DNA from: a virus
Taxonomy: Duplodnaviria; Heunggongvirae; Uroviricota; Caudoviricetes
DNA length: 22,826 nt
IMG/VR virus record: IMGVR_UViG_2724679293_000023
Strand: one strand, 5' to 3'
In this document: one piece after another, positions 4,403 to 5,018 of the stretch
Position numbering within the stretch: the stretch's first letter is position 1
How the letters are laid out: the number at the start of each line of letters is the position of its first letter
Notes under the pieces: model-generated
What the model saw: the letters and a program-made list of their open reading frames with translations, nothing else
The model's database searches: none
Told to the model about the DNA's origin: nothing
Position numbers and translations under genes: made by a program

Positions 4403-4445
4403 TATTCCTCCCGGCCGGGATAGTGTATTAAATCAGATATGGAGT

Positions 4446-4490
4446 GGGCTGTAGTCCGGAAGCCTGAATGACACACGGGGACTACAGCCC
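4446..4490. repeat. Perfect 12-bp inverted repeat (gggctgtagtcc / ggactacagccc) with 21-nt spacer in the nanS-p leader
   Basis: Arms at 4446-4457 and 4479-4490 are exact reverse complements; no adjacent U-tract, so not a classical intrinsic terminator. Confidence 0.6.
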
Positions 4491-4586
4491 AAGAAATGAA
4501 AAAAGGCCACGCAGTTGCGCAGCCTGATAAACCCTGGTTAAAATCCACACGATAACAACACAACAATATCAGTATCTCATGCTATT

Positions 4587-4611
4587 GCCCGAACCCATTC
4601 GGGCATTTTTT
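4587..4611 (+). terminator. Intrinsic terminator, plus strand (gcccgaa-ccca-ttcgggc then ATTTTTT)
   Basis: 7-bp perfect stem with 4-nt loop followed by T6. Confidence 0.5.
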
Positions 4612-4614
4612 ACC

Positions 4615-4644
4615 CATAAAAAATGCCCCTCCGGAGAGGGGCAT
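4615..4644 (-). terminator. Intrinsic terminator, minus strand (atgcccctc-cgga-gaggggcat; T-tract on minus strand)
   Basis: 9-bp perfect stem with 4-nt loop; A-run on plus = U-run after the hairpin on the minus-strand transcript. Convergent with the plus-strand terminator 3 nt away. Confidence 0.55.
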
Positions 4645-4841
4645 GTTTGCATGCACATTCTTTTTCTTGCATGGTGCCGGGTGCCTCCCGGTGAATTCAG
4701 TACCAGCACCTGAATCCGCGATTATCCCATATACCTACTCACTGATTGCCCCTCCGCACAGGGGGATTCACCATGCCAGTTTCTTTTAACAAACTCCCCG
4801 CAAACCAGACAACAGTCAACCGCCTGAATTGTGAGACATTT

Positions 4842-4867
4842 AAAAAAAAGGCCCGCAAAAGCGAGCC
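4842..4867 (-). terminator. Intrinsic terminator, minus strand, immediately 3' of the tRNA-like element
   Basis: Minus-strand reading GGCUCGC-UUUU-GCGGGCC followed by U8 (plus A8 at 4842-4849); stem includes one G-U pair. Confidence 0.55.
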
Positions 4868-4881
4868 AGGGAAAATAAGTG

Positions 4882-4957
4882 TGGCGCGTTGTACTGGATT
4901 CGAACCAGCGACCTGGCGATTATGCGTCGCTCGCTCTCACCACTGAGCTAAAGGGCC
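4882..4957 (-). tRNA. tRNA-like element with CAU anticodon (ileX/ileZ-like), probably degenerate because the acceptor stem does not pair
   Basis: Minus-strand sequence GGCCCTT-TA-GCTCAGTGGTGAGAGC...CGCATAA...GGTCGCTGGTTCGAATCCAGT has canonical D-arm, anticodon loop with CAT, and T-arm (TTCGAAT loop). The 3' strand ACAACGC-G-CCA pairs with the 5' strand GGCCCTT at only 2 of 7 positions, and position 33 is G rather than U. Confidence 0.45.
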
Positions 4958-4995
4958 GGGAGCAGAATAATAACGGTCCGTAATTAATTCCGCAA

Positions 4996-5018
4996 TAAAA
5001 AACCCGCTCAATGGCGGG
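4996..5018 (-). terminator. Intrinsic terminator, minus strand, downstream of the ORF6N gene
   Basis: Hairpin cccgc-tcaatg-gcggg preceded on plus by A6 (U-tract after hairpin on minus transcript). Confidence 0.45.

Follow-up and report, generated by a model that had tools for sequence, protein, structure and literature searches.

The late region of the 22,826-nt stretch of DNA analysed here (IMG/VR virus record IMGVR_UViG_2724679293_000023, Caudoviricetes; hereafter the window) carries a 76-nt element at positions 4882–4957 of the minus strand, in which the 5′ part of one transfer RNA (tRNA) gene, ileZ, is joined to the 3′ part of another, argO. The element most probably represents a dead tRNA that lies within a module of the type found in Shiga toxin (Stx) phages, next to an unoccupied cargo site and a convergent pair of small RNA (sRNA) genes, and that has spread by hitchhiking with this module; a probability of about 0.87 is given to the reading as a whole. 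The assignment draws on alignments, a direct count of acceptor pairs, ARAGORN, Rfam and folding predictions. A preliminary description of the locus had proposed a late region resembling that of Stx phages, and the alignments bear this out on both sides of the toxin position.

The hybrid composition of the element emerges from alignment with the Stx2 phage 933W (AF125520), phage Nil3 and the stx-free phage PhiR49_2. The 933W record annotates three tRNA genes, namely ileZ (a tRNA-Ile with anticodon CAU that reads AUA), argN and argO (a tRNA-Arg with anticodon UCU). Over positions 1 to G49 the window agrees with 933W ileZ at every base but one, a U33G change, and from C50 through the CCA end and the argO terminator its sequence is that of argO. 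The crossover interval is the heptamer CTGGTTC shared by the two genes at tRNA positions 50–56 (window 4908–4902), such that positions 1–49 derive from ileZ and positions 57–76 from argO. Between the two halves 174–176 bp are absent, comprising the 3′ end of ileZ, the whole of argN and the 5′ part of argO, and the intact arrays of 250–252 nt are thereby reduced to 76 nt. The decayed or recombined tRNA that had been suspected at this position is thus identified by alignment as an ileZ/argO fusion produced by an internal deletion of ~174 bp. An ileZ-like tRNA-Ile allele displaying the T-loop TTCGAAT (G57), in place of the TTCAAAT of 933W, occurs in porcine enterotoxigenic Escherichia coli and O139:H1 strains (H137–H145).

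Because the two acceptor strands of the element come from different tRNAs they cannot pair. A direct count of GGCCCUU against ACAACGC gives only two pairs out of seven, G1–C72 and U7–A66, exactly as first reported, and a canonical acceptor stem is lacking. The product is therefore unable to form the acceptor/T-arm helix, on which processing by ribonuclease P (RNase P), the lysidine modification carried out by TilS and aminoacylation all depend. It is on account of this dependence of RNase P, TilS and the aminoacyl-tRNA synthetases that the element is regarded as a dead tRNA, its function having presumably been lost. An alternative upstream 5′ strand able to pair with ACAACGC was also sought, and the sequence contains none. 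The remainder of the molecule is better preserved. The D arm retains the ileZ sequence, a T arm is present, the anticodon CAU is found at window 4924–4922, and the 3′ end reads GCCA with the discriminator in place. The D, anticodon and T arms had all been described as intact, which holds for the D arm and for CAU but requires correction at two points. Position 33 (window 4925) is G, where 933W, Nil3 and PhiR49_2 carry the conserved U, and this loss of the universal U33 fits a dead tRNA; in addition, the T stem closes with a G49–U65 wobble because the hybrid T arm is the fusion point.

The same features that survive, namely the D and T arms, the discriminator and the CCA, would be expected if the element were a working tRNA-Met or tRNA-Ile whose acceptor stem is unusual, and the Prokaryotic Genome Annotation Pipeline (PGAP) reports a 'tRNA-Met' at this position in every genome inspected. 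Similarly, the Rfam tRNA model scores 37.3 bits against a gathering threshold of 29. This alternative is nevertheless barely credible, as neither detector recognizes a full-length tRNA. The Rfam match is local, covering model positions 7–64 of 71 and leaving the acceptor stem outside, while the PGAP feature is truncated to 71 nt, starts at tRNA position 6 and bears no pseudogene flag (window 4882–4952, minus strand; 9169–9239, 19375–19445 and 2972–3042 in loci L004, L027 and L149, respectively). The PGAP call is a near miss for the canonical tRNA that would have contradicted the preliminary description, as it includes no paired acceptor stem. ARAGORN finds no tRNA in the window and none in the fused locus L004, but accepts the parental genes, reporting three tRNAs each in 933W and PhiR49_2, which served as positive controls. 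The 3′ acceptor strand that such a tRNA would have to use belongs, by alignment, to argO. Finally, the fused element is predicted to fold no more stably than shuffled sequence (−24.6 kcal/mol, z = −0.97); intact ileZ folds at −33.5 kcal/mol (z = −4.03), and the z value of argO is −2.35.

The U33G change provides information on the history of the element. G33 is found in 24/24 fused copies examined (22 from IMG/VR and two RefSeq loci) but in none of the intact ileZ copies of IMG/VR, of which at least 120 have U33. The confinement of G33 to the fused element argues for one origin, after which decay continued, and two of the 24 copies display an additional D-loop change, GG to AG. The order of events would then be as follows. 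An ancestral module probably carried the three-gene array ileZ-argN-argO, in which one deletion of ~174 bp between the T arms of ileZ and argO, which are nearly identical in sequence, would have generated the fusion; the simplest mechanism would be the loss of DNA between short direct repeats, through either recombination or replication slippage. U33 would have been lost after the fusion. The fused gene is probably still transcribed from the retained tRNA promoter pT (4967–4995, minus strand; hexamers TTGCGG and TATTAT read from the sequence, 17 nt apart), which aligns with the 933W feature 'pT; putative tRNA promoter', and transcription would stop at the argO terminator (4842–4867, minus strand; stem 4867–4850, T-run 4849–4842), which was detected by the terminator scan and aligns with the 933W terminator upstream of the stx genes. 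The resulting RNA would be non-functional.

Immediately beyond the argO terminator is the position at which Stx2 phages carry their toxin genes. In 933W, ~1.33 kb containing stx2AB replaces the five bases TTAAA of the window (4843–4839, minus strand), with stx2AB and its flanks positioned between the T-run of the argO terminator and TGTGTCACAATTC, the opening of an STnc100-like element. The Stx1 phage AU5Stx1, which is devoid of the tRNA array, displays the same right-hand boundary, as its stx1B is followed by the start of the same STnc100-like element. The flanks of the site are homologous in the alignments with 933W, AU5Stx1, Nil3 and PhiR49_2, the tRNA module upstream and the STnc100-like element, an anti-sRNA gene and nanS-p downstream. 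The distance from the 3′ end of the tRNA remnant (4882) to the start of nanS-p (4402) is 479 bp, in agreement with the ~480 bp first estimated, and an ORF (open reading frame) check of the window found no toxin ORF, whether stxA or stxB, between the antiterminator and tRNA region and nanS-p. The description of the stx site as empty thus holds for the toxin position itself, which is unoccupied, but not for the interval, which contains an STnc100-family element and the anti-sRNA gene agvB. Among the loci with intact arrays sampled in IMG/VR, ~25 display the direct junction, eight contain stx2 and a few contain other cargo. The site is accordingly a hotspot for cargo, seen here in the unoccupied form that is the commonest among the arrays sampled. 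The other cargo, seen in IMG/VR loci L053, L081, L084, L091 and L096 between argO and the STnc100-like core, consists of a 143-aa ORF (MFGIFKKKTRRAAAEIKKFEKRDL...), either alone or with two ORFs of 69–70 aa.

An unoccupied toxin position bordered by flanks homologous to both Stx1 and Stx2 phages could also have arisen if stxAB had once been present and had been precisely deleted, possibly in the event that damaged the tRNA, which would make the prophage an ex-Stx phage. The circulation of the module in Shiga toxin-producing E. coli (STEC) lineages is compatible with such a history, and in a preprint repeated loss of stx is mentioned as a possible history of similar loci. It is, however, unlikely here. 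The junction retains zero stx-derived bases, and gives no indication that stx was ever present; it is identical to the direct empty junctions of the stx-free phages PhiR49_2 (from ECOR13) and Nil3, and among the sampled intact arrays this direct junction is ~3 times commoner than stx2. Furthermore, the intact 3′ end of argO and its terminator separate the tRNA deletion from the cargo site, so that the deletion and the state of the site are not the result of one event. The Q type and the early region also differ from those of 933W.

Downstream of the unoccupied site, two sRNA genes converge, with their terminators facing each other. The first, at 4612–4805 of the minus strand, matches the STnc100 family (RF02076) over its full length (model positions 1–206; 143.7 bits against a gathering threshold of 47), lies upstream of the sialate esterase gene and ends in a terminator at 4644–4623. 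A 48-aa ORF at 4643–4789 of the plus strand, annotated by PGAP as a partial pseudogene, was rejected as a real gene, as it lies wholly inside the STnc100 match. According to a 2026 preprint STnc100 is related to PasD, and these sRNAs are found beside a sialate esterase gene. The second sRNA gene, agvB (4550–4611, plus strand), is matched by RF02702 from model position 1 to 62 of 62 with 96.5 bits against a gathering threshold of 56. All 62 of its bases equal the Rfam consensus, three hairpins and a terminator (4586–4605) are present, and the sequence, CGAUAACAACACAACAAUAUC, includes CACAACA, the consensus of GcvB R1 targets. AgvB acts as a sponge of the core sRNA GcvB and allows O157:H7 to grow better in bovine rectal mucus; expression, Hfq binding and antagonism of GcvB were demonstrated for the copies of O157:H7 Sakai, and convergent sRNA pairs were described by Tree et al. 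(2014) in the 'moron' site 3′ of PR′ (PMC4104026). A further terminator-like hairpin located upstream of nanS-p (4504–4525, minus strand; terminator scan) is conserved in 933W. The nanS-p gene itself, of the sialate O-acetylesterase type (2636–4402, minus strand), displays the Pfam domains DUF1737 and SASA and a partial DUF6645. A perfect tandem duplication (2141–2440 and 2698–2997) lies inside the gene with a spacing of 557 bp which, not being a multiple of 3, shortens the esterase ORF to 588 aa; a second ORF of 254 aa (1899–2663, DUF6645) repeats the C-terminal part of the protein at 96% identity. The closest genome carries an intact homologue of 648 aa, and the duplication could be a real recent event or an assembly artefact.

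The distribution of the fusion was followed with a 42-nt junction query, designed so that neither parental gene can seed under megablast. Among 5426 complete E. coli genomes, full-length matches to the exact junction were obtained in 162, with no more than two copies in any one of them. Among the matches listed are O157:H7 (including EC4115), O145, O121:H19 and O111:H8 strains, mostly of STEC serotypes, and the feature overlapping the junction is a 'tRNA-Met' in every match listed. O103:H2 and O45:H2 strains contain the same module, recognized as full-length, single-piece matches to a larger query. The module from pT to nanS-p is matched in about 3,500 E. coli genomes overall. The junction occurs in 22 copies in IMG/VR, and its 37-mer is absent from the GTDB species-representative genomes; it was not seen outside the E. 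coli collections. The flanks of the fused loci are mosaic, with at least two unrelated groups upstream and several haplotypes downstream. In EC4115, for example, the cassette formed by the fused tRNA, STnc100, AgvB and nanS-p is located behind a different antiterminator (Q) and a DNA methyltransferase. The association of the fusion with AgvB is strong: among the fused loci that could be assessed, 12 of 16 have an exact AgvB 33-mer downstream, compared with 2 of 47 intact arrays. Hitchhiking of the dead tRNA with an sRNA/nanS-p module that recombines among prophages would most likely explain its persistence and spread.

Transfer to a new role offers a different explanation for the same distribution. 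The fused RNA might still be made, kept and spread as a tRNA-like regulatory or decoy RNA that, for example, titrates a tRNA-binding enzyme or nuclease. The retained promoter and terminator, the three intact arms and the invariance of the element across flanking contexts, in 162 genomes of several serogroups, are in line with such a role, which is still very improbable. Its predicted fold is no more stable than that of shuffled sequence, a D-loop variant has already arisen, no Rfam family besides tRNA matches the element, and the tight linkage to AgvB is a simpler reason for its spread; the diversity of the fused loci, which is partly fixed by the search pattern, is too low for any test of selection. 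Several observations count against the interpretation of the element as a dead, hitchhiking tRNA that arose by a single short-repeat deletion. A parent carrying the G57 allele of ileZ could extend the crossover interval from 7 to as many as 15 nt (CTGGTTCGAATCCAG); the counts linking the fusion to AgvB are not phylogenetically independent; and transcription from pT and instability of the product are steps that we infer. The otherwise intact D, anticodon and T arms, together with the retained promoter and terminator, would also fit a non-tRNA role, and the invariance of the element across loci with differing flanks could reflect constraint. The explanation favoured here for this invariance is that the element arose recently and that recombination takes place within conserved tRNA sequence.

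The late genes, all of which are on the minus strand, are mapped in the same way by Pfam, by Rfam and by PGAP in a prophage of 99.3% identity, and their order is the one first proposed (Q-like, pR′/tR′, moron, tRNA, nanS-p, S, R, Rz). The closest complete genome is that of the bovine E. coli 7_33_46A, with 99.3% identity across the whole window, and the lambdoid prophage adjoins yebY and the SraC/RyeA-SdsR locus. The DUF1367, YbcO-type and DUF1133 genes occupy 7387–5947, and the last of these, at 5947–6501 with boundaries taken from PGAP, encodes the protein that had been termed Q-like. The protein resembles an antiterminator, with Pfam matches to DUF1133 (E = 1.9e-107) and, at a borderline 26 bits, to Phage_antitermQ (E = 9.6e-6), but it is of the DUF1133 type and not of the 933W/H19B Q type. 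Just after this gene, a promoter scan locates a pR′-like site (5921–5950, minus strand; TTGACT, 18 nt, TATATT; 10/12 matches) whose position fits a transcript starting at the 5′ end of an isrK-like RNA, for which it would serve as promoter. The isrK-like short RNA (5838–5914, minus strand) is matched by Rfam over its full length with 74.4 bits against a gathering threshold of 50, and its intrinsic terminator (5859–5842) is the equivalent of tR′. A C4-type antisense RNA follows at 5726–5810 of the minus strand (78 bits, gathering threshold 45), and a C4 a1/b1 target-like element is found at 5875–5927 (c4-a1b1, 49.8 bits, gathering threshold 46.7). The gene previously designated as moron, and preceded by these isrK-like and C4-like regulatory RNAs, encodes an antirepressor-like protein with an ORF6N domain (5116–5673, minus strand; Pfam ORF6N, E = 3e-20; ORF6N domain-containing protein in PGAP), and homologous DNA in Stx phages is annotated as the antirepressor Ant.

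The ORF6N unit closes with a hairpin and T-run terminator read from the sequence (4997–5019, minus strand), just downstream of which the homology with 933W, Nil3 and PhiR49_2 begins. A prophage of mouse E. coli (H73) matches the window from 22826 down to 4999 only. As the H73 match ends where the homology to the tRNA module of Stx phages starts, this terminator is a module boundary of the mosaic. At the opposite end of the late region, nanS-p is followed on the minus strand by a DUF826 protein gene and by the lysis cassette of holin, lysozyme and Rz (Pfam Phage_holin_2_1, Phage_lysozyme and Phage_lysis). PADLOC returned no match for the Q-like protein and only weak PDC-S05 candidate matches for the ORF6N protein.

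Elsewhere in the window, an accessory trio of genes (8499–10492, minus strand) lies between the replication and nin-like regions and comprises a 388-aa protein (ATP-binding in PGAP), a 117-aa DUF4325 (STAS-like) protein and a 172-aa ORF. PADLOC gave no match for the trio and Pfam matched DUF4325 only; the genes may be uncharacterised prophage cargo or a defence candidate. Further Rfam families above gathering are RalA, the antitoxin RNA of RalR (20480–20658, minus strand), a sok-family RNA adjoining hokD (8096–8269, minus strand), DicF (15431–15482, plus strand) and the host pair SraC/RyeA-SdsR/RyeB (22220–22364, both strands), the latter located at the boundary between prophage and chromosome beside yebY.

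The locus is real but ordinary, since all of its components are members of families already described, and many public genomes contain near-identical, annotated sequence. What the analysis adds is the exact structure of the cargo site and the fused tRNA, the identification of the publicly annotated 'tRNA-Met' as most probably a dead fusion, and the finding that the fused tRNA is linked to AgvB; the fusion was not found described in the literature, in a weak search in which no ileZ paper was retrievable. At least 162 complete RefSeq E. coli genomes contain the exact junction, the fusion is labelled 'tRNA-Met' with no pseudogene flag in every case listed, and the counts of rare-codon tRNAs carried by STEC prophages are thereby slightly inflated. 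The junction together with G33 provides a single-origin marker for one late-module haplotype, usually accompanied by the colonisation-relevant AgvB, and the marker follows the movement of this module, by recombination, between prophages of different STEC serogroups. Moreover, a late region that resembles that of an Stx phage but is devoid of stx is the common ground state, and on its own is not evidence of toxin loss.

Compared with the ileZ-argN-argO array of 933W and of the stx-free phages Nil3 and PhiR49_2, the window displays the same pT region, the same first 49 positions of ileZ except for U33G, and the same 3′ part of argO, terminator and STnc100-like element. In contrast, it lacks ~174 bp, and one non-foldable fused element with G at position 33 replaces the three tRNA genes. 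The late regions of the Stx phages 933W (Stx2) and AU5Stx1 (Stx1) share with the window a common order of antiterminator, promoter/terminator, tRNAs where present, cargo site, STnc100-like element, antisense anti-sRNA, nanS-p, DUF1378/DUF826 genes, holin, lysozyme and Rz, and the boundaries of their toxin cassette map exactly onto it. The window differs in having no stxAB, in carrying a DUF1133/AntQ-like antiterminator instead of the Q of 933W, in the presence of an isrK/C4/ORF6N unit between Q and the tRNA module, and in the identity of its anti-sRNA, which is AgvB, whereas the AsxR variant occurs 3′ of stx2. The AgvB/AsxR loci of enterohaemorrhagic E. coli (PMC4104026) contain the same 62-nt AgvB, the CACAACA mimic of GcvB R1 targets and a convergent second sRNA, at the same moron site 3′ of PR′; no difference was detected, and the window would appear, by sequence, to hold a further copy of the published locus. 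A similar arrangement is seen in the antQ-isrK-orf45-anrP region of Gifsy-1 (Hershko-Shalev et al. 2016, PMC4825925), which likewise combines a Q-like antiterminator with an isrK-family RNA containing a leaky terminator and an antirepressor-like gene. The locus analysed here belongs instead to an E. coli prophage, in which a C4-family match is interposed between isrK and the ORF6N gene.

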